Shown piece by piece: positions 1 to 46,719 of a DNA stretch of 54,628 nucleotides. The translations under genes were made by a program, and so were the position numbers. Under the pieces are notes generated by a model that was given only the letters and a program-made list of their open reading frames with translations, was not told where the DNA came from and did no database searches. Numbering within the stretch: the first letter of the stretch is position 1; each line of letters starts with the position of its first letter. The DNA is from a virus (Duplodnaviria; Caudoviricetes): IMG/VR virus record IMGVR_UViG_3300033076_001036, positions 1 through 54,628 of that record. The stretch is one strand, 5' to 3'.

Positions 1-792
1 CCGACGCATAGCGGGCGTCAGCTTCGCATGTTTCGACGCGGACACCGCGAGGAAGAGACTGTTTACGATGACCTTAGAGCTATTGGGATTGTGGTCACGG
101 GAATACAGGCTAGAGCAGACTTCGGTGCAGGCGTTAGCGGTTCGTTTGATGGGATTATCGTACTTAACGGCGTTCGAACGCTGCTAGAAATCAAGGGCCT
201 AAACGAGGATCGCTTCAAGGCACTCAAGAAGCACGGCGTAAAGAAAGCAGAACTTGAGTACTGGCGACAAATGCAGCTTGGAATGTTGGGCCTAGGTCTT
301 GACCAGGCTCTATTTTTCGTCACTTGCAAAGACAACGATGACAGGTATGAAGAGCGCGTCAAGATAGACCGCGCCGAAGCTGAGCGCATTCGAGATCGCG
401 CCATCTCAATCGCACTGTCGAACGAAGCTCCGCCGCGAATCTCGAACGATCCTGCTTTCTACATTTGCAAGATGTGCGACCAGAGGAAAGCTTGTTTTGA
501 ATCTTCCGATTGGGTCAACTGCCGAACGTGCGCACATTCAACTCATACAGCTGAAGATAAGTGGATTTGCGAGCGCTGGGAACTTGAGATCCCGGACCTT
601 GAAGCTCAACTCACCGGGTGCGACTCCCACGTCATGCATCCTCACGTTGTGCCGTCATGGGAGCGACTAGAAAGTATCGGAGAATTTGCAGCTCCCTATA
701 GACTTCAAAACGGAACTGAGGTAATCAACGGGAATCCGGAGGAGTTACCGGGAGCCGTAACAAGTCGAGAGCTGATAGGGGAAAACAAGTGA
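1..792 (+). CDS. Cas4-like PD-(D/E)XK exonuclease (5' end truncated by the window edge)
   Basis: Frame is open from base 1 (PTHSGRQLRMFRRGHREE). Motifs: FDG..LLEIK, QMQLGM, C-terminal CKMCDQRKAC and a second Cys/His cluster. Confidence 0.8.
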   Translation, partial: PTHSGRQLRMFRRGHREEETVYDDLRAIGIVVTGIQARADFGAGVSGSFDGIIVLNGVRTLLEIKGLNEDRFKALKKHGVKKAELEYWRQMQLGMLGLGLDQALFFVTCKDNDDRYEERVKIDRAEAERIRDRAISIALSNEAPPRISNDPAFYICKMCDQRKACFESSDWVNCRTCAHSTHTAEDKWICERWELEIPDLEAQLTGCDSHVMHPHVVPSWERLESIGEFAAPYRLQNGTEVINGNPEELPGAVTSRELIGENK

Positions 793-2177
793 TAGAACTG
801 ACAGAGTATGAGCGGCTTATCGCCAAGAAGACGAGGATGGTTCCGCCTACAGGTATACCGTCACCACCGGAACTAGGTAACTACCTTTTTGACTTCCAGT
901 CCGCATGTGTGAAGTGGTCTTTGGTGCGCGGAAGATCATGCTTGTTTCTTGACACTGGGCTAGGTAAATCAAGGTGCGCCATTGAATGGGCTCGCGTAGT
1001 TCACGAGCACACGGGAAAACCAGTATTGATTCTTACTCCGTTGGCAGTGGCTAGGCAGTTCGTTTCCGAGGGATCCGCCATAGGTGTTGTCGTTAATAGG
1101 GTCATTGAGACATCTGACATCTCGCACGGGATCAATGTCGTTAACTACGACAGGTTGGATCGTGTGATCGGCACTGAGTGGGGAGGTGTTGTCCTGGATG
1201 AATCTTCTATCCTGAAGGACTTTAACGGCAAGACCAGGAACGCGCTAATCGATGCGTTCAAAAACGTACGGTTTAAGCTGTGCACAACCGCAACGCCAGC
1301 TCCTAACGACCACACGGAACTCGGGAACCATGCGGAGTTTCTCGGAGCGATGACCCGCACTGAGATGCTGTCAATGTTTTTCGTCCACGACGGTGGAAGT
1401 ACTCAAGATTGGCGCATTAAAGGGCATGCTGTTGAGCCGTTTTGGAAGTGGGTGGCGTCGTGGGCTATCGCAATACGCTCACCATCCGACATTGGGTTTG
1501 ATGGGTCAAAGTATATCTTGCCTCCCATTCAGATCGATCAGGTAACGGTTGACTCGGGTGATAACTCAAACGGTGGGATGTTGATTGGGTATGAAGCCAG
1601 GACTCTGTCCGAGCAAAGGGCATCCCGCCGCGCTTCACTTAATAACAGGGTGAAGGCGTGCGCAGACGAAGTGAACGCATCAAGTGAACCATGGCTAATA
1701 TGGTGTGATCTTAACGATGAAAGCTCGGCTCTCACAAGCGCCATTCCTGACGCTGTTGAGGTTCGAGGTAGCGACTCCAGCGAACACAAGGAAAAGGCTG
1801 TCTGGGATTTTATCGAAGGCAAATCGAGAGTTCTAGTAACCAAGCCAAGCATATGCGGGGCTGGGCTCAATATGCAGCGGTGTGCTCACGTTGCATTCGT
1901 AGGACTTGGCTACTCATGGGAGCTTTACTACCAAGCGATCCGAAGGGTCTACAGATTCGGTCAGTCCAGGCCGGTAACGGTGAGAGTGATTGTTGGTTCG
2001 TCTGAAGGCCGAGTGGTTGAGTCGATTAAGAGAAAGCAATCCGATGCCGACGTCATGGCTGTTGGAATTGTTGCGCATATGCGCGAGTCAATGATACACA
2101 ACATAGAGTCTCTCGGTAAAACCGAGGACGGGTACTTTGCAAACGAGGGGATGGTTATTCCAAAATGGTTAACGTGA
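789..2177 (+). CDS. SNF2-type superfamily 2 helicase
   Basis: Walker A DTGLGKS, Walker B VVLDESS, motif III TATP, GAGLNMQ, motif VI QAIRRVYRFGQ. Confidence 0.9.
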   Translation: MIELTEYERLIAKKTRMVPPTGIPSPPELGNYLFDFQSACVKWSLVRGRSCLFLDTGLGKSRCAIEWARVVHEHTGKPVLILTPLAVARQFVSEGSAIGVVVNRVIETSDISHGINVVNYDRLDRVIGTEWGGVVLDESSILKDFNGKTRNALIDAFKNVRFKLCTTATPAPNDHTELGNHAEFLGAMTRTEMLSMFFVHDGGSTQDWRIKGHAVEPFWKWVASWAIAIRSPSDIGFDGSKYILPPIQIDQVTVDSGDNSNGGMLIGYEARTLSEQRASRRASLNNRVKACADEVNASSEPWLIWCDLNDESSALTSAIPDAVEVRGSDSSEHKEKAVWDFIEGKSRVLVTKPSICGAGLNMQRCAHVAFVGLGYSWELYYQAIRRVYRFGQSRPVTVRVIVGSSEGRVVESIKRKQSDADVMAVGIVAHMRESMIHNIESLGKTEDGYFANEGMVIPKWLT

Positions 2178-3112
2178 TTTCTCAGTCTTCCGGAGACGGG
2201 TGGCATCTTTACAACGCTGATTGCGTGGATGTTCTGTCTGGCCTTCCTCCGGAGTCAGTTCACTACACGATCTACTCACCGCCATTTGCGTCGCTCTACA
2301 CATACAGCGCAAGCTCGCGCGACATGGGCAACTGCGCCAACTCGGAGGAGTTCCTAGAGCAGTTTAGCTTTTTGATGCCAGAGTTGCTGAGGGTAACCAA
2401 GCCAGGTCGTCTAATGAGCATGCATTGCATGTTGCTTCCAACATCGAAAGCGCGCGACGGATTCATTGGCCTTTCTGATTTTCGAGGTGACCTCATTCGC
2501 GCCGCTATCAAGGCCGGATGGATCTTTCACTCCGAAGTTTGCATCTGGAAAGACCCGGTTACAGCAATGCAACGCACCAAGGCACTCGGACTACTCCACA
2601 AGCAGATCCGCAAGGACTCAACCATGAGCCGTCAGGGCGTACCTGACTACCTTGTGACTATGCGAAAACCAGGGGAGAACGCGGAGCCAGTTAGTCACAC
2701 CCATGAACAGTTCCCGGTTGAGATGTGGCAAAGGTACGCATCTCCAGTGTGGGCCACATCTGGACAGACTGATGATGAGGGGTTCATCAAATTTGAATCA
2801 CCAAATCAAAACAACCCGGACAAATGTGGGATCGATCCGGGGGATACGCTACAGGGAACGAGCGCTCGATCCGAAGAAGATGAGCGCCACATTTGCCCAT
2901 TGCAGCTGGATGTAATCAGGAGGGGAGTCAGGCTTTGGACAAATCCAGGTGACACGGTGCTCTCACCTTTTGCTGGGATAGGAAGCGAGGGTTATGTATC
3001 CTTGCAAGAAGGTAGGAAGTTCATTGGAGCTGAGCTTAAGCCGTCGTACTATGACCAGGCAAAAGCCAACCTAAGCAACGTCGGAAGACAGTTATCAATG
3101 TTTGGAACCTGA
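2165..3112 (+). CDS. N4-cytosine/N6-adenine DNA methyltransferase, beta class
   Basis: Catalytic motif SPPF near the N-terminus; HICPLQ and SAM-binding SPFAGIGSEG near the C-terminus; coupled to the helicase gene. Confidence 0.9.
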   Translation: MVNVISQSSGDGWHLYNADCVDVLSGLPPESVHYTIYSPPFASLYTYSASSRDMGNCANSEEFLEQFSFLMPELLRVTKPGRLMSMHCMLLPTSKARDGFIGLSDFRGDLIRAAIKAGWIFHSEVCIWKDPVTAMQRTKALGLLHKQIRKDSTMSRQGVPDYLVTMRKPGENAEPVSHTHEQFPVEMWQRYASPVWATSGQTDDEGFIKFESPNQNNPDKCGIDPGDTLQGTSARSEEDERHICPLQLDVIRRGVRLWTNPGDTVLSPFAGIGSEGYVSLQEGRKFIGAELKPSYYDQAKANLSNVGRQLSMFGT

Positions 3113-3115
3113 ACA

Positions 3116-3400
3116 ATGATCGACATCGAACGAATCAGAAAAGCGACTGCTCGCATTCGGGATATGCACTCTCCGGATGATGTGTTTGCTATCGTCCAGG
3201 AGGAGTGTGGTGAACTCATCACCGAGATCGCAAGACTCAGGCGCGGACGTGCTGACTACTACGGGATAGCGCTAGAGGCTCTCGACTGCATCGTAGTTAG
3301 CGTTTCGCTCTTGGATATGCTAACGCACTCACTTGGAGAAGAGTCGCTAACCGGACTTATCAACGCGAAGATGGATCAAATCGAGAGGTATGAAAGATGA
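3116..3400 (+). CDS. MazG-like all-alpha NTP pyrophosphohydrolase
   Basis: EECGELI...EALD acidic motif in a short helical protein. Confidence 0.6.
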   Translation: MIDIERIRKATARIRDMHSPDDVFAIVQEECGELITEIARLRRGRADYYGIALEALDCIVVSVSLLDMLTHSLGEESLTGLINAKMDQIERYER

Positions 3401-3591
3401 GTGAATACGTGCCGCCGGCGAGTCCGTGCATGTGGGCGATTGCTGACCGATTTTTAGATTCCTCCGGATTTGCTATGTTCGCAATAACGGTCGGCCCCTG
3501 CAAAACCGCGTTCGACGCCTGGAAGCTTTCGCGTTTACCTGGTGACTTTGGGTCGTATCAGTATGAGTCTTTGACGGAGACGAATGAATGA
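3397..3591 (+). CDS. hypothetical protein
   Basis: ATGA overlaps with both neighbours. Confidence 0.6.
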   Translation: MSEYVPPASPCMWAIADRFLDSSGFAMFAITVGPCKTAFDAWKLSRLPGDFGSYQYESLTETNE

Positions 3592-4064
3592 AACTACTAA
3601 CAACAGCCATAGCACTAACAGTCCTTTCGCTAATCGCCGCAACTGGACGCGGGTCTGTTGGCACCCGTGGGATTCTGGCCGGCGCTCCGTGCGAAGGTGA
3701 ACGGGCAGACGTGGACGAATTAGCGCGAGAGATTGACCGAATCACTGACAGGCGTATCCGCGCCCTGGTCATTTCCACGGGGCGCTATGAGTCGAGAGGA
3801 TGGCGCCACGATATCTGTTCCGGCGAAGTCCTGGGAGATAAGGGGAAAGCGTTTGGCTGCTTCCAGGCGCATCATCCGGACCGGTCCGGTGGGTATGAAG
3901 GGCAAGTCCAGCGCGCCGCTAGATTACTCCGGTGGACCCTAGCGCGCTGCGGAACGTATGAGGGAGCGATCGCTCACTATGCGACCGGGCACTCGTGCGA
4001 GTGGTCCGGAGCTAGCGAGCGAGCCGAGTATGCGCGCAAAGTGGAGGCTAGGCTCGAATGGTAA
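3588..4064 (+). CDS. exported lysozyme-like/lytic transglycosylase-like protein
   Basis: Hydrophobic N-terminal signal; ES catalytic-type motif (RYESRG), GCFQ and AIAHYATG match SLT-fold motifs. Confidence 0.55.
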   Translation: MKLLTTAIALTVLSLIAATGRGSVGTRGILAGAPCEGERADVDELAREIDRITDRRIRALVISTGRYESRGWRHDICSGEVLGDKGKAFGCFQAHHPDRSGGYEGQVQRAARLLRWTLARCGTYEGAIAHYATGHSCEWSGASERAEYARKVEARLEW

Positions 4065-4070
4065 TAAACA

Positions 4071-4155
4071 GGGCCGCTTGTTCGTCACTCTGTTCGCGGA
4101 GAGAGGGAGGGGAGGAGACGCGAACAGGAAAACAAGCGGCCCCAATGACTTTTTT
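4071..4155. terminator. long two-tier hairpin; probable bidirectional terminator and candidate sRNA
   Basis: 12-bp outer stem 4071-4082/4131-4142; 9-bp inner stem 4090-4098/4119-4127; 20-nt all-purine loop on +; T-rich tracts on both strands. Confidence 0.65.
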
Positions 4156-4175
4156 AGCACACTTCCAATTCGTTA

Positions 4176-4190
4176 TGGTAGTGTGAGCGA
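4176..4190 (+). promoter_or_regulatory. extended -10 promoter, predicted leaderless mRNA for 4191..4724
   Basis: TG-g-TAGTGT, then 6 nt, then ATG; no SD. Confidence 0.5.
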
Positions 4191-4724
4191 ATGAAACAGC
4201 CGCTTCTTTTTGACGTCGGGGAAGCTAGTGAGCTCCCAAGGAAGGAGAAGCCTAAAGAGGTCTTCTTTCCGAGGTCAGGACACTTCCAGCTTCCGGTTGC
4301 CGTGGACGGACTGTACAGCACCGAAGCCAGATTACACGGTAGGAATCCAGACTCAATAACTGGACCGGATCGATCCTGGTGCATTGACGGGAAAGATGCT
4401 AGGCGCTCCGGTGAGTTGCAATGCAAGGCGATCATGTGTGTGCACCACTTGTTCGGGAAAGCTGCCCTAGAACAAGGCGACGAGTCAGCGGTTGAGCGCG
4501 CAATGATCTCCTATCTGAGCGGCGAAATCAACGACTGCTGCGTGCTTGATATTGTCGAGGACGGGATCCCGGTTGACGATGATCAGATCGCCCTACTTCT
4601 TGGCGTTGACCGCGAAAGAGTTCCTCAGATTGGCGCCGAAGCTGCTTTGAGTTTCCGAGAGTCCTCAAAAAAGCCAGGACTATCAAAGCGCAAACTGTCC
4701 AGGGCTAAACCCGAGGATCGGTAA
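4191..4724 (+). CDS. Cys-rich sigma70 region-4-like HTH protein; candidate late transcription factor
   Basis: C..C.HH and CCVLDIVE, then QIALLLGVDRERVPQI (compare sigma 4.2 TRERIRQIE); paralog of 41474..41878. Confidence 0.7.
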   Translation: MKQPLLFDVGEASELPRKEKPKEVFFPRSGHFQLPVAVDGLYSTEARLHGRNPDSITGPDRSWCIDGKDARRSGELQCKAIMCVHHLFGKAALEQGDESAVERAMISYLSGEINDCCVLDIVEDGIPVDDDQIALLLGVDRERVPQIGAEAALSFRESSKKPGLSKRKLSRAKPEDR

Positions 4725-5052
4725 CGGTAATCACTCCGCTTCCACCTTCGTTCAGTTGCGGCACATGCCCGTCAGCAGTCGTCACATTGAGCACGTAGCG
4801 ATAGGTACCAGCGCTGAGTAGCGCGGTCGTAGCCGGCGTCCAGTAAACCCTAATCGTTTTTTCGGCGTCGCTCACTGTCACCGTTGAGCTTGCTTGTGTG
4901 AGCGTGAAAACCGGGGTGGTTGACTTCGCTGGATAGACGCTGAAATCAATTGTTGAAGTGGTGAGGTTCAGCGTCCCAAAGTTCGGATCCGGTACTAAAC
5001 GAAACGTCCACGGTCCGCCACTTCGGCCTAGTTCTACTCTTAGGTTAGCCAT
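4705..5052 (-). CDS. Ig/BppU-like small virion protein
   Basis: Beta-rich; TPATTALLSAGTYRYVL resembles a BppU-N-like pattern; last gene of the leftward arm. Confidence 0.45.
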   Translation of the reverse strand: MANLRVELGRSGGPWTFRLVPDPNFGTLNLTTSTIDFSVYPAKSTTPVFTLTQASSTVTVSDAEKTIRVYWTPATTALLSAGTYRYVLNVTTADGHVPQLNEGGSGVITVTDPRV

Positions 5053-5922
5053 TTAATCTCCGATGACAGTGGCGGTAATCTGCGGACCGCGAACTACTGA
5101 GCAGGTGATTTGTTCTTGCTCAACTTGAGCGGTAATCTGTGGACCGGTTACGACAGAAACCTTTACGCGAGCAGGCCCGCCCGCTGCGGTCAGAACGCCG
5201 GCAGCTGAGCATGTTGCCCCATCAAGAGTGACAGAGCACGCCCCTTCGATTCCTCGCACTACGACGGCGCTAAGCGTTGCGTCGGCTAGTATTACGGACG
5301 AGGCGCTGCGAATCTCAAGCGCGCCCGTAGCGCTCAACGTAGCGCCGGCTAGGACGCTTGACTCAGTAGCAGCTAGCGCAAGTGTCGCCGCGCTGGACAG
5401 TGTTGCGCCAGCTAGTGTGACTGAGCATACGCCAGAAACCGCAATGGTTGACGCGCTTACAAGCGTTGCGCCGGCCAGTGTGTTAGAGCATACGGCGCGA
5501 AGCTCAAGGGTACTAGCGGCCGTGAGTGTGGCGCCGGATAGCGTAACCGCTAAGTCACCGGTTATCGGCGCCGATCCGATTGTACCTTCTGAGCTGAGTG
5601 TAACGTCCGCCAGTGTAATGGCAGCGTTAGCTCGAATCTCAAGCGCGCTTGCGCTGGATAGCGTGACACCCGCCAACGTCGGGGCGCACGCCGCGCGAAT
5701 CTCTAGAGTGCTAGCACTCGAAAGCGTAGCACCGGCCAGCGTTGCAGACGACTGACCGGCTAGAGCTACTGTCCCGGCGCTTGATAACGTCGCTCCCGCC
5801 AGTGTCTTCGCGCAGCTCGCGTTGATTGCGATTACTGCGGACGAGCTTAGGGATGCGCCGGATAGAGTCTGCGATAGACTACCAACGCCCCCAGAAGCTA
5901 TAGACGCTAGCAGGAGTGACAT
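5053..5922 (-). CDS. Ala/Ser/Thr-rich protein with eleven ~21-aa repeats
   Basis: Repeating TL[AS]GATLSS units; three C-terminal QIT repeats. Confidence 0.8.
   Translation of the reverse strand: MSLLLASIASGGVGSLSQTLSGASLSSSAVIAINASCAKTLAGATLSSAGTVALAGQSSATLAGATLSSASTLEIRAACAPTLAGVTLSSASALEIRANAAITLADVTLSSEGTIGSAPITGDLAVTLSGATLTAASTLELRAVCSNTLAGATLVSASTIAVSGVCSVTLAGATLSSAATLALAATESSVLAGATLSATGALEIRSASSVILADATLSAVVVRGIEGACSVTLDGATCSAAGVLTAAGGPARVKVSVVTGPQITAQVEQEQITCSVVRGPQITATVIGD
5188..5889 (-). repeat. 11 degenerate 63-nt (21-aa) coding tandem repeats
   Basis: aa 12-245, e.g. INASCAKTLAGATLSSAGTVA, LAGQSSATLAGATLSSASTLE, VSGVCSVTLAGATLSSAATLA; repeat 5 has 3 extra residues. Confidence 0.85.
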
Positions 5923-5932
5923 TAGATGTTAA

Positions 5933-6253
5933 TCAGCCGAAGAACGCACCAACGTTGCCGATTCTTGGCATATCATACGACGGGAACTCTGGACACACTA
6001 CGTGGTTGATTGTTTCCACAACTGGTCCAACGTTGTAAGTAAGGTGTTCTCCACCGAACAGCTCAGTCCTGACACTGAGCCGAGCAGTAGTGTCAAAATC
6101 TTGATACTCGTTTCCGTCAACGCCATCGACTACGAGAGCAGGGTCCCACACGTGACCATTGCCAAGGATCACGTACTTCCGTGCCTCTACAGGGTCCTCG
6201 AAAATGTGGCCGTCGATTTCAATGTATCCATTTGAGTCAAAAGTCGCTTGCAT
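5933..6253 (-). CDS. hypothetical acidic protein
   Basis: Fits between neighbours with short gaps. Confidence 0.6.
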   Translation of the reverse strand: MQATFDSNGYIEIDGHIFEDPVEARKYVILGNGHVWDPALVVDGVDGNEYQDFDTTARLSVRTELFGGEHLTYNVGPVVETINHVVCPEFPSYDMPRIGNVGAFFG

Positions 6254-6258
6254 GATAT

Positions 6259-7716
6259 TTAGATCTGATAACCAGTGAACGTAATTGTGTGAGCGATTAC
6301 TCCAGCGCTAGGCGCCGTGCCGACTTTCTTTTTCACCGTCTGAATGAACTCGTTCGGGTAAACCGGAATACCTTCTGGGAAGGTCCAGGATACTGAGTTA
6401 AGCGCAGTTAGTGCGGTTGCACCTGATGCTACGGCCTGGTTCCCAAGCGCAATGCGCCGAGGCGATCGAGCTGATGCGGACTCAGTGGTAGCCAAAGAAA
6501 CGTTATTGTGGCCAAACGCCAGAGACCACACCGCGTTATATCCTCCGCCGGTTAGCGCCGTTTGGATGAAGCTCTCGATCTTTACTCCGGTAATAACGAT
6601 CGTCTTCCCTGGTAGTGACGCGGTGCCGGCGGGGTTCTGGTAGCTCTGCACAATGCCATCGGTTGTGACGGCTAGAGTATCAGTCTCCCAGAATTGACCA
6701 CCTAGACCGGACGCCAGAGCTGCAGTGGTATTCGTAGGGACTGCTGCCGTGGGGTTTGCCGAGTTTGCGAAGTTCGCAAGGCTACCCATCGTGCCGCCGG
6801 TTTGGCCCTGGTAGATATGCTTACCGGAAATAGAGTTTGCGATTTGAAATGGGAAAGAATTCTCCGCGTCGCGCTGAAACACATGCGCGTGAGAACACTT
6901 GATTGACTGAGCCGCTCCCGTCGCTGAGCTGTTGTAGGTGCGAATACAGAGCGGTAACGACCTGCTCATCGTGTGGCCGAAGCCAACAGGTCGCGGAAGT
7001 TCGGCGATCTTGATCGGGTACTTTCCCGATCCTTGCGGCATAACCCAAAAGAAAACGAAGTCCTCGCCAAACTCCACTTGGAAGTTTGCAGTGGTATCAA
7101 CGGGCCACCATGTCGGTCCGCTTGCAAGGTTAGAGGCGAGATCCGCGCTGGTGGATTCGGTGCCGTTATTGTTAATTACACACTTGAAAGATCCGTCAGA
7201 ACCAAGGCGGAAGAACGCACCGTCAGTCGGGGCCGACGTACCGGTGCATATGATTGCGCCCCACTCGCTCACATTGTTCGTGACCGGCGCCTGGGTCCGC
7301 TGGAGAGCCAGCGCGAATGTAGTTCCGAATGACCCGTAAACCTGGAACTGCTGATAACTTGCAACGCGAGCCACTGCGCCGCTTGCCGTTGAAAGACCAG
7401 CGTTCAGGTTAACGTTTCCACCCGTGACGGTGACCGTCATCGTAGTAACGGGTGCGGTCCACACCCCGGAGTTGATAGCGGAGCCAGGAAACGGCTCACT
7501 GAAAACCATCGAATCAACGCCGGAGCGCAGTCGGTAATCCTGCGAAACCTCGATTGACTTCATGTCGCGGGTGACGATCGTTCCGTCGTCAACCTCAGCG
7601 GTAGCCGCCGCGAATCCAGCTGTCTGCTCAGGAGAAAGAGCAACGAGAAGCTCGCCATCCGTGTTAGTGCTTACCTTGGTGTTTGGGCTATTCGCGCCCT
7701 CTAACTGTAGTGCCAT
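6259..7716 (-). CDS. putative virion protein with lectin/concanavalin-like beta-sandwich
   Basis: Thr/Ser/Gly-rich beta-type sequence; APTDGAFFR motif; strong AAGGA RBS. Confidence 0.55.
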   Translation of the reverse strand: MALQLEGANSPNTKVSTNTDGELLVALSPEQTAGFAAATAEVDDGTIVTRDMKSIEVSQDYRLRSGVDSMVFSEPFPGSAINSGVWTAPVTTMTVTVTGGNVNLNAGLSTASGAVARVASYQQFQVYGSFGTTFALALQRTQAPVTNNVSEWGAIICTGTSAPTDGAFFRLGSDGSFKCVINNNGTESTSADLASNLASGPTWWPVDTTANFQVEFGEDFVFFWVMPQGSGKYPIKIAELPRPVGFGHTMSRSLPLCIRTYNSSATGAAQSIKCSHAHVFQRDAENSFPFQIANSISGKHIYQGQTGGTMGSLANFANSANPTAAVPTNTTAALASGLGGQFWETDTLAVTTDGIVQSYQNPAGTASLPGKTIVITGVKIESFIQTALTGGGYNAVWSLAFGHNNVSLATTESASARSPRRIALGNQAVASGATALTALNSVSWTFPEGIPVYPNEFIQTVKKKVGTAPSAGVIAHTITFTGYQI

Positions 7717-10276: not shown

Positions 10277-10386
10277 TTGCAAAAAACCCCGTATAAGAGC
10301 GCCAAAATTAAGAAACCCTGGACAGCGAAATATGCAATGACCCACGCGAATGACACCTGATTCACACCATCAAATGCAGCCGTCAT
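10273..10386 (-). CDS. 37-aa single-TM membrane peptide (not in ORF track)
   Basis: MTAAFDGVNQVSFAWVIAYFAVQGFLILALLYGVFCK; ATGA overlaps at both ends. Confidence 0.6.
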   Translation of the reverse strand: MTAAFDGVNQVSFAWVIAYFAVQGFLILALLYGVFCK

Positions 10387-27082: not shown

Positions 27083-29202
27083 TACTTCACCGTCGGAACG
27101 CTAGGGGAGTTGCCTCGGTTTTGAGCGGCCATTGCAATGACTCCCTTGAGGGCTTCGGTTTGGTCTGCAATGAAGCTCTTTAGTTGATTCTCTTCAATCA
27201 GCTTCCGTTTGACGTCGCCCTTGATAGCTTCCTCATTCTCCCCGCCGCCCAAGCGAGCTAGCCCCTGGAACAGGTTTTTGAACATTCCAGGATCTTCCTG
27301 GGAGCTTGCCAGTTGAGCCTTGGCCGCCTCAATCGAAGCCGAGATTGCTTTTTCTGCCCCGGCGTAGTCGCCTTTGGACAGTGCGGCGGCGGCCTGTGAT
27401 GACGCATTTTGAGCACCGATCCCAAGCTCAGCTTCGCGACGATTTTTCGCATCATCTGCGCTAGCCATTGAATCGACAGTCATTAGCCCGACCGACAGAG
27501 TGGTCACGGCCAACGCTCCGATTATCCCGGCTTTGCCTAAGGCAGCCGTTCCCCCGGTGGCTTCTCCGGTGATGACTCCTTTGATGGCATCGCCAATCTT
27601 AGCAGCTGCGATGTCAGCGGTGATCTTGGTTGCTACGGCTGCTCCAATTGTCCCAAGCACCCCAAGTTTATCGATTAGCCATGTGACCTTATCGACCAGC
27701 TTTCCAAGCTCCGGTGTAAGCTCCGCAAACTTCGGGATGAGCTTAGTCACTTGTGGAAGCAACTTTGAACCCATCTCAGAGTTAAAGTTCTTCATTGCCT
27801 CTTTGAACTGAATGTCAGCGTCCTGATATCGGCTTTCAGCACGCGCGTTCAGGTCCGCGTCTGACATGCTAGCGCCTGAAAAGCGCCCAAACTCAGCGAG
27901 CATCGCCGCCTTGCCAGCCTCGCCCTTTTTCTTGCGGTCCTTCGGCGCAAGCTTCGCATTCGCTTCCTCCGCCTGAAGATATAGCGGGGAGAAACCCTGA
28001 AACGCCTTGATCGACTGAGCGTTGAAAACGTCCTGGAGCTTGGTCAGGTCGCCGCCTGTTTTGGCCATTATGTCGGCCATGATCTCGCGCGGATCCTTGA
28101 GCTTGGTCTTTCCCTTGTCTGAAAAAATATTCAGACCAAGGGCATTGAGCGCCTTCTGAGACGGCTTCTTAGTGAGGTCCTCACCAAAGCGAACCACGGC
28201 GGTACTTGCTTCGGCAGCGTTGGCCGCACCACCGCGCGCGACGGACGCTTGCGCCATGGCGCCCATGGTCTTCATGAGTTCCGCCGGACCCCCTTGGAAC
28301 TTGCGCGTGGCCGCTCCCAGTGACGCTAGCTCAACGGCCATGTCCTTAATCTCAACCGCTCCCATGTTTCCTTGAGCAGCGAGAGTTCGCATCACATCGT
28401 TCAGGGCCTTGATCTGTTCTTCGGGATCTTTGATCGTGTCTCGGATCACATTGAACGCTTGACCGGCGGCTTCTCCCATTTCTCCGAAGTCAGTCCCCGT
28501 AGCGATTGCAAGCTTGCCCATGTCCTGGATAGCCTTGCGAGCCGCCGAAACATCACCAGTCTTTTCAACGAAACCGCCCATTGCGGCCATCGTCTCTTCA
28601 CCCGTGAACCCTCTGACTTGCTGAGACTCTTTGAGGATGGCAGCTTTCTGCCTCGGGTCTCCAGTCATGTTGGCCAGCTTGGAGGCCATTGCTGTTTCCC
28701 TCATCTGTTGAGAGACAGCCCCCGAAAGCATGAAACCGCCGCCGATGGCAAGCGCGCCCGTTGCCACGGTCCCGACGGTTCTGGCCGCGTTAGTTGCGCT
28801 CCTACCGATGGTCCCTAGGGTGTTAGACCTAGAGCGCATCTGAGCGACTTCTATGCGCTTACGCTGACGCTCCTCTTGCTGGTAATGCTTGTTCTGAAGC
28901 TGTTGTTTCCAGCGAGCGGACCGCGCCACCTCCGCGGCGACTCGCTTCTCTTCTCTAATCTTGGCATTCGCAATCTGACGTGCGGCCCTGTCTTCCGCCG
29001 CAACTTGCGCACGCAGCGCCGGATCAACGCCACGAGTCCTAACCGGCGCACCGCGTCCAGATCCGCCACTCGTTCGGCCACTACCGCCAAAAGTCCTATC
29101 CATGCGCGACGCATGCTGAGCAGCTCGCTTTTCAATCGAAGCAAAAGCGCGATTGATCGCGTCCTGTCCGACGACTTTAAAATCATACTCAAGAGTGGCC
29201 AC
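27082..29202 (-). CDS. tape measure protein
   Basis: Long Ala/Gly/Lys-rich helical protein; QGNMGAVEIKDMA motif; follows tube and chaperone. Confidence 0.85.
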   Translation of the reverse strand: MATLEYDFKVVGQDAINRAFASIEKRAAQHASRMDRTFGGSGRTSGGSGRGAPVRTRGVDPALRAQVAAEDRAARQIANAKIREEKRVAAEVARSARWKQQLQNKHYQQEERQRKRIEVAQMRSRSNTLGTIGRSATNAARTVGTVATGALAIGGGFMLSGAVSQQMRETAMASKLANMTGDPRQKAAILKESQQVRGFTGEETMAAMGGFVEKTGDVSAARKAIQDMGKLAIATGTDFGEMGEAAGQAFNVIRDTIKDPEEQIKALNDVMRTLAAQGNMGAVEIKDMAVELASLGAATRKFQGGPAELMKTMGAMAQASVARGGAANAAEASTAVVRFGEDLTKKPSQKALNALGLNIFSDKGKTKLKDPREIMADIMAKTGGDLTKLQDVFNAQSIKAFQGFSPLYLQAEEANAKLAPKDRKKKGEAGKAAMLAEFGRFSGASMSDADLNARAESRYQDADIQFKEAMKNFNSEMGSKLLPQVTKLIPKFAELTPELGKLVDKVTWLIDKLGVLGTIGAAVATKITADIAAAKIGDAIKGVITGEATGGTAALGKAGIIGALAVTTLSVGLMTVDSMASADDAKNRREAELGIGAQNASSQAAAALSKGDYAGAEKAISASIEAAKAQLASSQEDPGMFKNLFQGLARLGGGENEEAIKGDVKRKLIEENQLKSFIADQTEALKGVIAMAAQNRGNSPSVPTVK

Positions 29203-29211
29203 GCTCTCACC

Positions 29212-29239
29212 ATCCTATCACGAATTACAATTCGTTATT
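29212..29239 (-). promoter_or_regulatory. putative late promoter AATAAC-N16-TAGGAT
   Basis: GTG start at 29202 lies 9 nt after the -10. Confidence 0.55.
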
Positions 29240-30017: not shown

Positions 30018-30035
30018 CTCTAGTCCTCCAAAACC

Positions 30036-30061
30036 AAAAGCCGTGGAGTCTCCCCCACGGC
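30036..30061 (-). terminator. intrinsic terminator after the tail tube gene
   Basis: GCCGTGGGG-GAGA-CTCCACGGC-TTTT. Confidence 0.75.
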
Positions 30062-30095
30062 CATGATGTTAGCCGATTCTAAGAGCTTCTATTGC

Positions 30096-38579: not shown

Positions 38580-39192
38580 TCATTCCCCGTGCTTCTGAAG
38601 GTGATAGTAGGTAAAACGTACAGCGACATTTTGGGTGTACCGATCCGGGTTCACCTACAGAAAAAGACCCATCCGGAGCGCTAAAAGTTCCATGCGCACG
38701 CGCACATATTGGACAGGTGCGCTTGTCCAAAGTCGCGTCCCAAACGCGAACAACTTGGACATCCACCGCGGCCGCCTTAGCTCGGTTAAAAACGCTTGCT
38801 GACTCAGTTCTGGCGATTGTGTCGATTCGCCCTCTAATAGTCGCAAGTGCCTCTTTGATCCCTTTGCCGCGCGCTGCATCTTTCGCCGCCTTCGCAAGTC
38901 TTTCTGATACACTGCGAGCGCGCGCAATCTGGTTAGTGGGCGGAACGACAACTTGGCCGCTAGTCCGCGTTCCTAGTTGCGCTGATTCGCGTTCGGCGCT
39001 TCGCCTTCCTGCCAATGCAGACAGCCGCCACACGTCCGCAACCGTCGCGAGTGTTACGCGCTGAAGTTGTGCGGGTCGCTTAACCTCATTCGTGCGCATT
39101 AGAAACAGACCAAGAGCCACGGCTTCGGCCCGTTCAAGGTCGCGAATATTCTCGCGCTGCGCTTGTTCGATTTCAGCTTGGGACCGGGCCAC
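38572..39192 (-). CDS. head morphogenesis protein (SPP1 gp7/Mu F family)
   Basis: IARTES...WDATLDKRTCPIC...HPKCRC. Confidence 0.88.
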   Translation of the reverse strand: MARSQAEIEQAQRENIRDLERAEAVALGLFLMRTNEVKRPAQLQRVTLATVADVWRLSALAGRRSAERESAQLGTRTSGQVVVPPTNQIARARSVSERLAKAAKDAARGKGIKEALATIRGRIDTIARTESASVFNRAKAAAVDVQVVRVWDATLDKRTCPICARAHGTFSAPDGSFSVGEPGSVHPKCRCTFYLLSPSEARGMNG

Positions 39193-40858
39193 TAGGCTCC
39201 TTTGGTTTCACCGCCGCCGCGTGATACGCCTCGGCCTGCTTCATGAGCGCGTCATTTTCGTCGTCAACCTGTTCCTGAGACTCTTTTTCAATCTCAGCCA
39301 TTAGCGACTCGATATCCTCAACGCCGAAGATCGGGGCCACTTGCTCAACTGCTACGCGCTTGGAAATCAATCCAGCGTCCAAGCAGTCGCGAGTCATGGC
39401 GACAATCTTTTGCTGTTCTTCCGGGTCGGGCTTGAAGTAGTTACCCCACTTAACACACACCTGAGGAACGCTGATTTCAGCGTCACCAAGGTATCCAAGA
39501 ACTTCGCTGATGTTCTCGACCTTGACACCAGCCCCGAGCTTTCGAGCGATGCGAAGTTGCATCAATAGCGCTGGGGTGAAGTAGTTGTCCGTTAGGTCGT
39601 CTCGATAGAGATCACACCGGTCGATCTGCTTTTGCTTGATTGCTTCAAGTGCCTTGCCTGAAGTCGTGGCAGCAAACTTGATGTTCTCAGGGTCGAGAAA
39701 GACAACGGCCATCGACTCCTGAATCTTGAGCTTCAGATCGGAGCAGTTGTCCTGCTGCGCCTTGAGAGCATCGGGCGGATAAACGATAGCGCCGACTTTG
39801 GTTTCCGGGCTCTCGTACTGCCACACATGACCCGGCCCCGAGAGTCGTGCCTTTTGCGGCGGAGCCGGGTCAACGAATGCACCGCGAACTGGATTGTTCG
39901 GACTTGAGAGCCCGCCAAATTCAGTAGTGGGTACGAGCGCGGTGCGACCCTCGCCGGTTGGGTTGTAGCCCTTCTGGACACCAATCTCGTAGCGTTGCGG
40001 CTCCGAATAGAGCGCTCCACGATGCCATTGGGATCGGGCAATGTCGTGCGCCTGAATCTCGTCCGTTACGTTCGCGTGGATTGCCTGGCCGTCGATAACA
40101 TTGACCGGCTGGCAGCCTCGCATATGTGCGTACCAAACAACCGGGACGAATCCAAGATTGTGATCCGCGCTTGCACTTGGATTTTCGCGCCACTCAATAT
40201 CAGCGTCGGACTCTTGCCCCTCAGCTGGGAAATAGACGATATCCCGTTCGCGCGTGATGAGTCGGCGATAGACCATCGCGCGAAGCGACCAGCTGCCGCC
40301 AGCGCTCTTGTACTGATCGATATACGGATAGAGGATCTCGACCTCTGACAGCTCCCCGTCATCGGACCAAACGGGATTGCACCACTTAGCCGGTAGCGAT
40401 TCCGCGAACGGTTTACCGTTACGGACACCCTGGAGTAGCACTCCGGTTCCGCACTCTTGCGACGACTGAAACAGCTCGCGACTAACAGATCGAAAGCGTG
40501 AGAGCTTGTGCCAGTCGCACAGAAACTCTTCTAGCGCTCGCTCCGGTTTTTCGTCCGCGTCCGGAGACGAATCATCTTCAGTTTCTTGCGACTGCTCGCC
40601 TTCTGTCTCAACTTCGATTCCGAAAGTCGGGAATCGACCCTCACCAAGGACCAAGTCGCAATTGGACTGCGCGGCGATACGGACTACCGGATAGACAATG
40701 CACGGGGCGCGCTCCCAAAGCGGGACGGTTTGAGAAAACCAGTCCGGTCTCCCTCTGTATTGCGTCCCATCGGCCCACGATTGCAAGCGTTCAAGCTCGC
40801 AGTAACGCGGGCTCATGTAACGCATGGCAATCCTAGACGCGCGCTCGTAATCCTGCAC
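39173..40858 (-). CDS. portal protein
   Basis: 561 aa between terminase and MuF gene; HNLGFVPVVW and SGKAL motifs of SPP1-type portals. Confidence 0.85.
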   Translation of the reverse strand: MQDYERASRIAMRYMSPRYCELERLQSWADGTQYRGRPDWFSQTVPLWERAPCIVYPVVRIAAQSNCDLVLGEGRFPTFGIEVETEGEQSQETEDDSSPDADEKPERALEEFLCDWHKLSRFRSVSRELFQSSQECGTGVLLQGVRNGKPFAESLPAKWCNPVWSDDGELSEVEILYPYIDQYKSAGGSWSLRAMVYRRLITRERDIVYFPAEGQESDADIEWRENPSASADHNLGFVPVVWYAHMRGCQPVNVIDGQAIHANVTDEIQAHDIARSQWHRGALYSEPQRYEIGVQKGYNPTGEGRTALVPTTEFGGLSSPNNPVRGAFVDPAPPQKARLSGPGHVWQYESPETKVGAIVYPPDALKAQQDNCSDLKLKIQESMAVVFLDPENIKFAATTSGKALEAIKQKQIDRCDLYRDDLTDNYFTPALLMQLRIARKLGAGVKVENISEVLGYLGDAEISVPQVCVKWGNYFKPDPEEQQKIVAMTRDCLDAGLISKRVAVEQVAPIFGVEDIESLMAEIEKESQEQVDDENDALMKQAEAYHAAAVKPKEPSGPVPS

Positions 40859-41882: not shown

Positions 41883-43151
41883 TCAACTCCCAAAAACAAC
41901 AGTCCGTTCAGAACCAACCATTCCGAACCGTCCCGTTATCGCATACCTCGCAGCGTCAAGCCAGTGGTTATTTTTATCCTCAGGTGTTTCTAGGTAAGCG
42001 TCCGGAATGTGGGGATCTTTCTTGCGCTTGTAGCTATTGAACTCCCGGATCCCGTTGACGCACTCGGGGCTCACGTAGAACCGGCACCAGGGCAGGTCGT
42101 TCGGCGGTTCGCGCTTGGCCAGCAGATCCATAACCCGAGAAATGCCGGGGAGAATCGCATTATCGGCCGGTTGACTATTGACACCGGCCCTTCGTCGTAG
42201 TTCCGCGATTCGGTCCGGCCGTGAGCGGTCGCACCAAAATGTGTGAGCAAAGCTCCACTCTTTTGCGCGTCGGTCCCATTCCTCCGGAAGCACTCCGCTT
42301 TCGTAGTGTTCCTTCAGCGCCCAAATCACGGCGTCATTTCCGTGGCCCTGAATACCGAAAAGAATCATCACGCCGGCATCGTTCCAACCATGATCGACAC
42401 CAACAATGAACTCACGAAACTGAGTTAGCGGTGGTGGCGTCCTAACGTGGAACGACTCGTCGAACGGATAAACCAGTCCCTCGCCGCTGTCGAAATCGCA
42501 ATCATACTCTCGCGAGTAGACTTGCGGATTCGTGAGCTGTTTGACAGTGCGTAGCCAAGCCTGGTCAACTTGCGGCGATTCGCTAGAGCGAAAGCGAAAT
42601 GAAACGAACTCAATTCCCTCGCCCTTCTCTCGTTTCTGCCCGAGCTGATAGTCGCGATACAAAACCCCGTGACGTCCCCGGCGCGGCGTCCCTGACTTGA
42701 CCCAAATCGCGCTTGAACCCGAACGCGAAAACGTCGGCTGAACGACACTCGTCTCAACTGTGGCTTCGATATCATCGCACTCGTCCTCTAGAACCATTCC
42801 GAAGCGCTGGCCTCGAATTGAGTGCGCATTCTCCGCTCCCCACGTCGAGAGCCGCGATCCATTCGAGTAGACCGCTGTGAGGTCGCTCATGTTCGTGGTG
42901 ACGAATCGCGACAGTGGACCCTTATAATCCTCTAACAGGTGCGGCCAAAAGACCATCTTTGCCTGTTTGAGCGAGGGGAGCAAAAGTCCGATCTGAAGGC
43001 CCGGCACCTTCATTGCCCACGAATGCAAAAGCACGCGTAGAAGAAACGACTTCCCCGTGCCTCGTCCCATAGCAAGCGTTACGACTCGCCCCGGTTGTAC
43101 CGCTTGAAATGCCTCCGACTGAAGCGCGTCAAGGTTCGCAGTGAAGCTCAC
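41883..43151 (-). CDS. terL: terminase large subunit
   Basis: Walker A GRGTGKS, Walker B VLEDE, SGTP, RNase H-like GVDHGWND and HWLDAARY. Confidence 0.92.
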   Translation of the reverse strand: MSFTANLDALQSEAFQAVQPGRVVTLAMGRGTGKSFLLRVLLHSWAMKVPGLQIGLLLPSLKQAKMVFWPHLLEDYKGPLSRFVTTNMSDLTAVYSNGSRLSTWGAENAHSIRGQRFGMVLEDECDDIEATVETSVVQPTFSRSGSSAIWVKSGTPRRGRHGVLYRDYQLGQKREKGEGIEFVSFRFRSSESPQVDQAWLRTVKQLTNPQVYSREYDCDFDSGEGLVYPFDESFHVRTPPPLTQFREFIVGVDHGWNDAGVMILFGIQGHGNDAVIWALKEHYESGVLPEEWDRRAKEWSFAHTFWCDRSRPDRIAELRRRAGVNSQPADNAILPGISRVMDLLAKREPPNDLPWCRFYVSPECVNGIREFNSYKRKKDPHIPDAYLETPEDKNNHWLDAARYAITGRFGMVGSERTVVFGS

Positions 43152-43738
43152 TCAGTCGGGGCCTCAGGATCCCCGTCTTCACCCTCTACGCCTTCACTCT
43201 CGCCACTCACAGACTCATCACTCTTCACAACCTCGGAGGGCGCACTCACATTCGCGGTCCCCTGAAGGTTCACGACTACCACAGGGCCCATCGATTCAGG
43301 GCGTGCCGTAGTGTCCGGGGTGAGTAGCTTTGCAAGATTGGACGCGTTCTTCTCGCAGTCCAAAACGATCTTCGCCCAATCGGGTCGCTTATCGATTACC
43401 ACCCCCTGATCCTTATAGACGTCCGCTTTCTTTTTCTCCGCGCGCTTTTTCGCGACTCTCATGATCTCTTGGCGGGCCGTAATGGCCTCGACAAGATACC
43501 CTTCAAACATCGCGCGCCGGTCAGCGAGGAACTCAGGATCTTTCTCAAAGTCCCGAGCAAACTTCTTCCCTAGCGACGGACTAATTCCGCAGATCGCTGA
43601 GGCCTTGTGAATGTGCCCGTTGACTAGATACTCGGCTCGAAATTTGAGCTTAGTAGCAACCGGGGTCTTATTGCCATTGTGAGGTCCGCCTGGCATTCTG
43701 TATTTGCTCCTACCGTCACCCGTTACCGTCGGCGACAC
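43148..43738 (-). CDS. terminase small subunit (putative)
   Basis: HTH-like N-terminal region; ATGA overlap with terL. Confidence 0.6.
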   Translation of the reverse strand: MSPTVTGDGRSKYRMPGGPHNGNKTPVATKLKFRAEYLVNGHIHKASAICGISPSLGKKFARDFEKDPEFLADRRAMFEGYLVEAITARQEIMRVAKKRAEKKKADVYKDQGVVIDKRPDWAKIVLDCEKNASNLAKLLTPDTTARPESMGPVVVVNLQGTANVSAPSEVVKSDESVSGESEGVEGEDGDPEAPTE

Positions 43739-43782: not shown

Positions 43783-43807
43783 AAAAACCCCGCTTACTAG
43801 GCGGGGT
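43783..43807 (-). terminator. intrinsic terminator separating early-left genes from late genes
   Basis: ACCCCGC-CTAGTAA-GCGGGGT-TTTT. Confidence 0.75.
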
Positions 43808-43831
43808 GTGAAAACTTCCGGCAGTTGAGAG

Positions 43832-44160: not shown

Positions 44161-44186
44161 GGCTCCCAAAAATATTTTTGGGAGCC
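44161..44186. repeat. perfect 26-bp palindrome
   Basis: GGCTCCCAAAAAT|ATTTTTGGGAGCC. Confidence 0.9.
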
Positions 44187-45614: not shown

Positions 45615-46319
45615 CTACTCCTTTTGGCACTCCTCGTGCCTAATACCCTTGGCCCCAAATTTCCAGGCCACTCGATCCCCTACCATACACTCCACACCGC
45701 ACACAATGCATTTTTGCGCGCCGTGTTTCGCGATGTGACTCTCTGCTAGTGCGTATACCCTCTCCGCTGCCTTTTTCTTGCCCCCATCGCTACTACTCCC
45801 GCCGGTATCATTCGCACCGATACCACTAGCCCCCGGCCGGCACTCATAGTGCCAAAGTTCCGTCCGTCCCTTGATCCACGAAACGCGCGTCATCAATTCC
45901 GGAATCTTCCCACATCCAGCACACTTCCGCTCCCCGTATTTTTCGACGTGTTTTTTCGTAAGAGTACAGTGACCAAACTTCGATAAATCCAGCACAGGAG
46001 CGCCGTCAAAAAGTCCAGCGTCACTATCCAATAACGGATCGCATTTGATTCCGAGCACATCGGAAAGCTCTAACGCTAGCTCATTAGCGATCATTCTGAC
46101 AACAGCTGGTCTCGCTACTGTTGTTTCGATTCTCGCGCGCTCCAGCTCGGAAACCTTTCGCTTGGCCATGACCTCCGAAGTCATTCGATTGATCGTGGCT
46201 ATCACCCTGGGTTTCAGCTCCTTGATCTTTTCTACGAGCTTAGCCCTGTCCCCAAGTTCCTCGGACTTCTGGGCCCTGAGTTTCTTCCACTTAATCGCCT
46301 CCCACACTCTCTTGTCCAC
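45615..46319 (-). CDS. protein with two CxxC...HxxC zinc-finger-like repeats
   Basis: KYGERKCAGCG..RVSW..HYEC and KHGAQKCIVCG..RVAW..HEEC. Confidence 0.7.
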   Translation of the reverse strand: MDKRVWEAIKWKKLRAQKSEELGDRAKLVEKIKELKPRVIATINRMTSEVMAKRKVSELERARIETTVARPAVVRMIANELALELSDVLGIKCDPLLDSDAGLFDGAPVLDLSKFGHCTLTKKHVEKYGERKCAGCGKIPELMTRVSWIKGRTELWHYECRPGASGIGANDTGGSSSDGGKKKAAERVYALAESHIAKHGAQKCIVCGVECMVGDRVAWKFGAKGIRHEECQKE

Positions 46320-46512
46320 TCAGTTCTCCTCTCGATTTTTGCGACCCCTCAGTCGCAAATTTTCTCTTCTCCTCCCCTTATCCTACCCTCCCAAATCATC
46401 CATGTCTAGTGGGTGGGTAAATTGGGCTCCGTAGGACTGTGCCGCCGACGCCGCAGCAAACGCGGAAGGTGTCGAGCGGAGCGCTAGATGCGCTAGCGAT
46501 TAACTTCGCACA

Positions 46513-46541
46513 ATTTTACCATGGGAATTTTCCCATGTCAA
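46513..46541 (-). promoter_or_regulatory. near-consensus sigma70 leftward promoter with a palindrome in its spacer
   Basis: TTGACA-N17-TAAAAT with extended TG; CATGGGAA-N2-TTCCCATG at 46520-46537. Confidence 0.85.
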
Positions 46542-46682
46542 GCGGGGTGTTCTCCCCGCGCATTTCGGCTTGCGCCGTGCACGGGCACCCACTAACCGGT
46601 ATCACGGATACCGAATTTTTACCCTCACCACTTACAGACTGGTTGGAATGATTTACCACGGCCACCGACACGAAAAAAGTTC

Positions 46683-46711
46683 TTGACACTTTTCCGAATC
46701 TAGAATATCAA
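46683..46711 (+). promoter_or_regulatory. rightward sigma70-type promoter
   Basis: A-tract, then TTGACA-N17-TATCAA; ATG 8 nt later. Confidence 0.6.
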
Positions 46712-46719
46712 TCCTAACC

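Follow-up and report, generated by a model that had tools for sequence, protein, structure and literature searches.

What is the function of a long, two-tiered hairpin whose 20-nt loop reads entirely as pyrimidine on one strand and entirely as purine on the other, and which lies between two genes that are read in the same direction? The question arises from the genome of an uncultured, myovirus-like phage (so described on the basis of ORF calling and PHROG scans), for which the window analysed here is the whole of a linear IMG/VR record of 54,628 bp, estimated to be ~73% complete. Among catalogued phages, its nearest relatives are uncultured and aquatic, with protein identities of 43–49%. A first-pass annotation of this window had picked out the hairpin as a candidate small RNA (sRNA) of around 80 nt, produced from the minus strand and able to silence mRNAs led by a Shine-Dalgarno (SD) sequence, or as a ‘sponge’ for CsrA, with a plain bidirectional terminator as the simpler alternative.

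The hairpin lies between two rightward genes

A rightward block of genes (28–4724) encodes a Cas4-type exonuclease, a helicase, a DNA methylase and a set of small ORFs, as assigned by PHROG scans, and a leftward string, running from 46319 down to 4705, encodes the sliding clamp, terminase, portal, sheath, tape measure, baseplate, fibres and endolysin. The hairpin sits within a 126-nt gap (4065–4190), flanked by the plus-strand genes g3588 and g4191, with the genes upstream of the gap overlapping tightly. The leftward late genes end 560 nt away from the hairpin; there, g4191 overlaps, tail to tail and by 20 nt, with the last gene of the leftward structural/late string (4705–5052, minus strand; from the ORF list and PHROG scans).

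The upstream gene, g3588 (3588–4064, plus strand; from the ORF list), encodes a protein of 158 aa with a hydrophobic N-terminus, has a codon score in the coding range, and ends with tandem stop codons, TAA TAA (4062–4067), with the hairpin following 6 nt further on. Only two homologues (75% and 64% identity) were found among 5.8 billion proteins, both in short Logan contigs (1871 and 1260 bp); several Cys, Trp and Glu-Ser positions are invariant, and the protein matched no Pfam or PHROG family. Stop-codon read-through or frameshifting was ruled out by inspection, given the tandem TAA TAA and the lack of a slippery site.

The downstream gene, g4191 (4191–4724, plus strand), encodes a protein of 177 aa that found no homologue besides itself among the same 5.8 billion proteins. 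An antisense ORF (4154–4435) was considered as a real gene in its place and rejected, its codon log-likelihood being -2.35 as against +20.6 for g4191, a value that fits the genes of this phage. In the one relative seen (described below), 11 of the 12 listed differences between 4220 and 4277 are synonymous in the frame of g4191, a count that cannot by itself tell g4191 from the antisense frame, as the two share third positions. Because codon usage backs g4191 and not the antisense ORF, we place the hairpin between two co-directional plus-strand genes. A clear SD is absent from g4191 and its ribosome site is weak; furthermore, the region from -32 to -5 relative to its start folds into a second, small hairpin (CACACT...AGTGTG, 4159–4186), which holds the motif CATAAC/GTTATG (4172–4177) in its loop. 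No tRNA or tmRNA was found.

A two-tiered hairpin with an enlarged loop

Every coordinate and motif given for the hairpin by the first-pass annotation is present, and the perfect 12-bp and 9-bp stems around a 20-nt loop were borne out by both complementarity and folding. The left arm of the outer stem (4071–4082, GGGCCGCTTGTT) is 12 nt in length and 100% complementary to its right arm (4131–4142, AACAAGCGGCCC). Inside this lies an internal loop (4083–4089), of 7 nt on the plus strand and mostly paired on the minus strand, where two extra pairs and a U.G leave bulges of 3 nt and 1 nt. The inner stem then pairs 4090–4098 (CTGTTCGCG) with 4119–4127 (CGCGAACAG) over 9 perfect base pairs, with position 4120 being the site of a G>A change in the one relative seen.

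The terminal loop (4099–4118, 20 nt) is all pyrimidine on the minus strand, where it contains CUCCUCCC and CCUCC, and all purine on the plus strand, where it contains three overlapping GGA motifs along with GGAGG-like motifs; since it is pyrimidine-only on one strand and purine-only on the other, the loop cannot pair within itself. The purine run to which it belongs (4098–4118, 21 nt) is the longest of the six purine/pyrimidine runs of at least 14 nt in the window. A G-quadruplex or i-motif was ruled out by inspection, there being too few runs.

On its minus-strand 3′ side the hairpin is followed by a U-rich tail (4062–4070, UGUUUAUUA; plus-strand reading TAATAAACA). On the other side, a T6 run (4150–4155, plus strand) lies 7 nt past the stem; read on the minus strand, this is the TAAAAA that had been taken for a ‘-10’ element, with TGc before it. 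Consensus and hairpin-plus-tail scans called the run neither as a promoter nor as a terminator tail.

The minus strand makes the better RNA

Folded as RNA, the hairpin reaches -40.5 kcal/mol on the minus strand (z -5.5) and -37.9 kcal/mol on the plus strand (z -3.5), with none of 200 shuffles being as stable in either case; in a 241-nt context the z-scores are -6.1 (minus) versus -3.5 (plus). Folding as DNA gives -24.8 and -23.5 kcal/mol, with z-scores of -5.1 and -5.6 on the two strands. When 90-nt folds were slid along both strands (10,908 windows, mean -23.2 ± 5.8 kcal/mol), the hairpin, at -38 to -40 kcal/mol, fell in the extreme tail of the distribution; it is not the most stable fold of the window, and the top 25 are mainly GC-richer coding stretches. 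The hairpin is real, non-random and unusual.

The two strands differ in how they fold. The minus-strand helix reaches 25 bp (14+2+9), interrupted only by bulges of 3 nt and 1 nt, and includes two G.U pairs that correspond to C.A mismatches on the plus strand; the probability of being unpaired is 1.00 over all 20 nt of its loop, against a mean of 0.69 on the plus strand. On the latter, the two-tier form (-35.9 kcal/mol) loses to an alternative fold (-37.9 kcal/mol), in which the purine loop pairs with the pyrimidine-rich left half, such that around half of the loop bases have an unpaired probability of only 0.38. The flanks are equally lopsided: the minus-strand tail adjoining the stem is UGUUUAUU, with six of the eight bases in TGTTTATT being T, and on the plus strand the T6 run starts 7 nt after the stem, with no stem-adjacent tail flagged. 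For intrinsic termination, a U tract 7 nt away from the stem is too far. The proposal that the minus strand is the better RNA is therefore upheld by its 25-bp helix with two G.U pairs, its open C/U loop and its adjoining U-rich tail.

Probable terminator signals on the minus strand

Between the end of gene 4705–5052 and position 4143, no U-tailed minus-strand hairpin more stable than -11 kcal/mol was found; the candidates in that interval are weak (-9 to -10.6 kcal/mol, at 4671–4672). The other minus-strand terminators of this phage are canonical, with 7–8-nt loops and T5 or TTTTGGTTTT tails, as exemplified by CCCCGC-ctagtaa-GCGGGG-TTTTT near 43790–43815, and because such hairpin plus T-tail terminators occur in the phage, the polymerase would be expected to read signals of this kind. 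Compared with the features usual for an intrinsic terminator, the hairpin has a stable GC-rich stem and, on the minus strand only, a stem-adjacent U tract, but at 20 nt its loop exceeds the customary short loop of about 3–8 nt, as well as the 7–8 nt of the other terminators of the phage. Efficient intrinsic terminators usually have loops shorter than 20 nt. Our consensus terminator scan was limited to loops of 3–8 nt, and the hairpin was not listed by it.

An antiterminator, formed by the pairing of 4197–4208 with the outer stem, was considered and rejected, since equally good pairing was reached by 25% of shuffles and by 31% of genomic windows.

Two further elements of the leftward string were noted in the course of this work. 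A canonical minus-strand terminator at 30018–30095 (GCCGTGG/CCACGGC, then TTTTGGTTTTGG) carries an 8-nt loop that, on the transcribed strand, is rich in purines and resembles an SD (GGGAGACT), a polarity opposite to that of the anti-SD idea. Separately, the 151-nt gap ahead of a small leftward gene contains a perfect 26-bp palindrome (44161–44186; 13+13, with no spacer), which could be an operator or a terminator.

Promoter motifs and predicted targets

A late RNA had been proposed to start beside the hairpin, just downstream of a CATAAC box with a poor -10. This motif (4177–4172, minus strand) is followed by 15 nt and then by TAAAAA, without a T at the last position; no TANNNT occurs within 14–18 nt of it, and a sigma-70-like consensus scan called no promoter-like site from 2120 to 6252. 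Nor is the CATAAC 6-mer enriched, with 12 copies found versus 15.4 expected in the window. Two other minus-strand copies are followed by exactly 16 nt, by TAGAGT or TAGAAT, and then by 8 or 6 nt leading to the GTG starts of long late ORFs (43774–43736 and 40892–40856); the genes behind them are 43148–43738, which precedes the large terminase, and the portal gene (39173–40858). Versions with one mismatch are found at 29239–29200 and 9740–9704 (minus strand), before starts at 29202 and 9706. CATAAC-N16-TAGA(A/G)T has the appearance of a genuine class of promoter from which leaderless late mRNAs are made. What stands of the proposal is this plausible leaderless late class at the two other sites; the copy beside the hairpin, with its 15-nt spacing and its TAAAAA, does not belong with them.

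A 394-nt intergenic control region (46320–46713) contains a near-consensus TTGACA-N17-TAAAAT promoter on the minus strand (46541–46513), with the palindrome TGGGAAAATTCCCA in its spacer; downstream of it come a purine-rich stretch of ~33 nt, a small hairpin and then the GTG at 46319. It is in this leader that an 11-nt perfect complement to the loop had been reported (46368–46378). The match is real, but carries no significance, as 511 of 5000 composition-matched, shuffled loops reach a match of at least 11 nt on the minus strand.

The wider idea that the loop targets SD-led mRNAs gained no support from a comparison of duplex energies at 77 translation start regions of the phage. Here, the minus-strand loop gave a mean of -7.74 kcal/mol, with 13 regions at or below -12 kcal/mol, no better than the 200 shuffled loops (mean -7.89 ± 0.43 kcal/mol, with 14.2 ± 3.1 regions at or below -12 kcal/mol); its mean duplex energy against interior coding windows was -6.12 kcal/mol. 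As shuffled loops score alike, any C/U 20-mer would pair the purine-rich ribosome sites of this phage equally. The suggested split in SD usage, between GGAGG-rich early genes and AAGGA-type or leaderless late genes, holds only roughly: structural genes are often preceded by sites of the AAGGA(G/C)CTAAC type, but the leftward block also contains sites of the GGAGG type, at 10383 and 10703. The CsrA ‘sponge’ is not supported either: it would need the plus strand, which offers only three overlapping GGA motifs in a single loop and no Rfam match, and the many GGA motifs over several stem-loops that are typical of CsrB/RsmZ are not seen.

Relatives of the locus

The only relative seen, in sequencing run X2, consists of two 151-nt contigs covering 4018–4166 and 4172–4315; two further runs (X3 and X4) gave no matching sequence, and a fourth (X1) is near-identical and may be the source. 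A search for RNA runs over 3400–5200 returned none. The first contig shows three differences, only one of which, 4120 G>A in the inner stem, lies away from the contig ends. With this change the position stays paired on the minus strand, as G.U, and becomes a C.A mismatch on the plus strand, at a cost of +1.9 versus +3.4 kcal/mol; the change carries little weight, being a single change in a contig of depth 3, synonymous in a 42-codon frame, and within a near-identical mosaic block. Divergence from X2 is patchy, with one listed difference in 4018–4219 versus 12 in 4220–4277, and conservation in X2 as a sign of selection was rejected, this patchiness looking like mosaicism. Because the block 4018–4219 is near-identical whilst 4220–4277 holds 12 differences, we take the identity of the loop in X2 to reflect mosaic recency, as opposed to demonstrated selection.

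Wider searches returned little. The window DNA from 3000 to 6000 had no match in the phages collection; the g3588, g4191 and g5053 proteins, along with the g3588 alignment, found no relative in viral_contigs, and the g3588 alignment none in metagenome_contigs and only a 33% partial match, from a haloarchaeon (L083), in genome_contigs. No homologue of genes 3116–6253 was found in 80 relatives of the helicase and 37 relatives of the gene at 6259–7716. The 20-mer of the loop gave no match in viral_contigs, and the outer-stem pattern gave one in metagenome_contigs (L082:1-230), unrelated to the hairpin. That match is an AT-rich, eukaryote-like palindrome of ~230 nt at the end of a contig, probably an assembly fold-back matched by chance. 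A single-sequence covariance model run over 99 sources (985 kb of related loci) recovered the window itself and three weak matches only, the best of which (L084:10952-10989, E 0.034) is an ordinary short terminator, and there were no matches in 49 whole related virus records. Rfam gave nothing at gathering score over the whole window; between 3950 and 4300, at E values up to 10, its only matches were to XIST_intron (E 0.35) and to a tombusvirus element (E 5.2), both taken as chance.

A hairpin of comparable build was seen in a phage with a 50%-identical helicase (L016:5731-5773): it has a 13-bp perfect stem and a 17-nt loop, rich in C/U on the strand that encodes the helicase (z -4.0). A phrog_1123-like domain immediately precedes it, the helicase follows ~230 nt later, and it is not alignable to the hairpin of the window. 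The same design may have been arrived at independently in this phage.

Discussion

Synthesising these observations, we tentatively suggest that the element most likely serves leftward transcription as an intrinsic terminator and 3′-end hairpin, its enlarged loop mimicking an anti-Shine-Dalgarno sequence. RNA-type, strand-specific features point to the minus strand, and a terminator acting on that strand is therefore the most economical role that we can assign; the same reading is favoured because stability exceeds chance, and does so by more on the minus than on the plus strand, and because the U-rich tail touches the stem on the minus strand and not on the plus. The first-pass annotation had offered a plain bidirectional terminator as its simpler alternative; the terminator core of that proposal is what we retain, but not its symmetry, as it applies to the minus strand only.

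We envisage that leftward transcription, having met no canonical terminator behind gene 4705–5052, would run antisense through g4191 until it reaches the hairpin, where the 25-bp helix would fold in the leftward RNA and transcription would stop in the adjoining U-rich tail. A stop at this point would shield the rightward replication-gene operon from antisense transcription. Each RNA ending at the hairpin would, in addition, carry an unpaired 20-nt C/U loop that mimics the anti-Shine-Dalgarno of 16S rRNA. That the minus strand is transcribed at the hairpin, that termination occurs there, and that the loop has any activity are all points that we infer. Should the loop be functional, its partners would be ribosome-binding leaders rich in purines, among them the purine loop of the rightward mRNA, to which it is exactly complementary; we consider such a role possible but doubtful.

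Saying this, some aspects of the locus sit uneasily with a terminator. Both neighbouring genes are on the plus strand, and minus-strand transcription is assumed; Rho could act first on the 560 nt of untranslated antisense RNA; and termination leaves the enlarged, one-sided loop unexplained. As to its position, the hairpin could mark the point where leftward read-through ends.

An alternative that takes the orientation of the neighbouring genes at face value is an mRNA element on the plus strand, between g3588 and g4191, acting either as an RNase III-type processing/stabilising hairpin or as a translational device, in which the SD-like purine loop holds 30S subunits, as a standby or decoy site, for g4191. 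With plus-strand genes on both sides and tight overlaps upstream, plus transcription is the default, and read-through into g4191 would be expected given that the T6 run is not stem-adjacent. In having stems of 12+9 bp and an internal loop, the hairpin is reminiscent of the RNase III sites between phage cistrons, and the geometry expected of these (about two helix turns plus an internal loop, in an intercistronic position) is found here, with 12+9 bp on the plus strand and 25 bp on the minus. The missing SD of g4191 and the small hairpin over its -32 to -5 region would suit a translational device, as would an RNA able to switch between folds 2 kcal/mol apart, exposing or hiding the loop. However, the plus-strand fold is the weaker of the two and has no G.U-specific support, the loop is 72–92 nt upstream of the start codon of g4191, and the stem-adjacent U-rich tail on the opposite strand would be left unexplained; on balance, we regard a plus-strand element as rather unlikely. 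The stems are also perfectly symmetric, folding equally well as DNA on both strands, and adjoin the exonuclease, helicase and methylase genes, as might be expected of an element at the boundary of the replication and structural modules that serves replication, recombination or packaging, either as a cruciform or by binding a protein. Such a DNA-level element is, to our minds, very unlikely: there are no iterons, AT-rich unwinding stretch or repeats nearby, the terminase genes are ~38 kb away, and both the U tail and the helix extended by G.U pairs are strand-specific features of an RNA type. Least probable of all is that the gap encodes a small protein and that the hairpin is incidental. A 42-codon open frame (4058–4186) does fit the gap exactly, starting 7 nt inside the end of g3588 and stopping 4 nt before the ATG of g4191, and the 4120 G>A change is synonymous within it (ACG>ACA), but its codon score of -1.86 compares poorly with the 7.5 ± 3.7 of real, in-frame 42-codon chunks, only 0.9% of which score that low, and nested perfect inverted repeats of 12 and 9 bp are unexpected in coding sequence.

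The remaining rival returns to a discrete RNA of ~80 nt, made from its own minus-strand promoter (CATAAC...TAAAAA, with a start near 4144) and ending at the U tail, whose C/U loop would either target SD-led mRNAs in trans or, in cis, form a ‘kissing’ contact with the complementary purine loop of the rightward mRNA. Its appeal lies in a compact layout, from candidate promoter to hairpin to U tail, with a loop that is fully accessible on the minus strand; in the TGc before TAAAAA, which resembles an extended -10 element; and in CATAAC being plausibly a real promoter half-site, given the two CATAAC-N16-TAGA(A/G)T sites. The pairing of C-rich loops with SDs is moreover a proven mechanism, as set out for SprX (PMC4005690) and for the cuckoo motif CCUCCUCCC (PMC4615179). 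Against this, the hairpin-side CATAAC has the wrong spacing, is one of a set of 6-mers that is not enriched, and sits in the loop of the small hairpin at 4159–4186; no promoter was called nearby; the 11-nt target match is at chance level; pairing to translation starts equals that of shuffled loops, with the top matches mixing early and late genes; and many late genes also carry AAGGAG-type sites that the loop would hit. A discrete sRNA is accordingly judged unlikely, and a model of an sRNA with defined targets is not supported by the tests applied.

Returning to the terminator reading, comparison with known systems shows where the hairpin conforms and where it departs. It resembles intrinsic, partly bidirectional terminators in its perfect, GC-rich stem shortly after a stop codon, in having A-rich sequence on one flank and U-rich sequence on the other, and in its nearness to the zone where the rightward and leftward gene strings converge; it differs from them in its two tiers, its 20-nt loop and a U tract adjacent only on the minus strand, and in its position between co-directional plus-strand genes, off the point of convergence. 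In the RNase III sites of the T7 early mRNA and the lambda sib/tI retroregulator, an interrupted helix lies between cistrons, and a terminator could double as a processing site; the hairpin shares with these a helix of ~21–25 bp with an internal loop, but its terminal loop is far larger. Lambda OOP and P22 sar are cis-antisense phage RNAs, each with a defined promoter, that reach into the coding end or the ribosome site of their target. The candidate RNA would likewise be short, opposite to two flanking genes, and would end in an intercistronic terminator hairpin, but differs in that its promoter is doubtful and its overlap would be only with the stop codons of g3588.

Likenesses to bacterial sRNAs centre on the loop. 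The cuckoo/CcsR RNAs (ar14, RF02344), which are anti-SD sRNAs of Alphaproteobacteria, present a C/U-rich loop on a stable stem, as the hairpin does. The cuckoo motif CCUCCUCCC, with which the CUCCUCCC of the minus-strand loop shares eight of nine letters, is described as partly an anti-SD motif (PMC4615179). CcsR RNAs are cut from the 3′ UTR of an mRNA (PMC8034643), an origin that would parallel a terminator-derived RNA at the hairpin. In contrast to this family, the hairpin has one module and not two to four, no Rfam match, a phage setting and no DUF1127 neighbour. With the UCCC/C-rich-loop sRNAs of Firmicutes (SprX, RsaE/RoxS and the RNAIII hairpins) it shares an accessible C-rich loop able to pair with SD/start regions; SprX blocks spoVG translation at the ribosome site through a C-rich loop containing UCCC (PMC4005690). 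The loop of the hairpin is, however, much longer and purely pyrimidine, and has no sequence or family match to these RNAs. Our literature search found no described phage RNA of this kind, and bacterial analogues only. Membership of the cuckoo/CcsR, SprX/RsaE-type or CsrB/RsmZ families is not borne out by the tests applied; a functional likeness is possible.

We also speculate that leftward RNA ends, abundant late in infection and belonging either to a short RNA or to 3′ fragments of late transcripts, may display the loop as a 20-nt anti-SD mimic that soaks up the purine-rich leaders of host and/or early messages, with the complementary loop in the rightward replication-gene mRNA as its first target, and that translation might thereby be shifted to the leaderless late genes behind CATAAC-N16-TAGA(A/G)T; this scheme, as a whole, we regard as distinctly unlikely.

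Finally, what the hairpin means for the biology of this phage depends upon its loop. If the loop is not functional, the element would be an unusual terminator/insulator in a phage without cultured relatives, of use mainly in annotating its transcription units. If it is functional, a phage would be using one hairpin both to terminate transcription and as an anti-Shine-Dalgarno ‘decoy’; such a device would offer a virus a cheap means of re-programming the choice of messages made by the host ribosome, linked to the leaderless late genes of the same genome.
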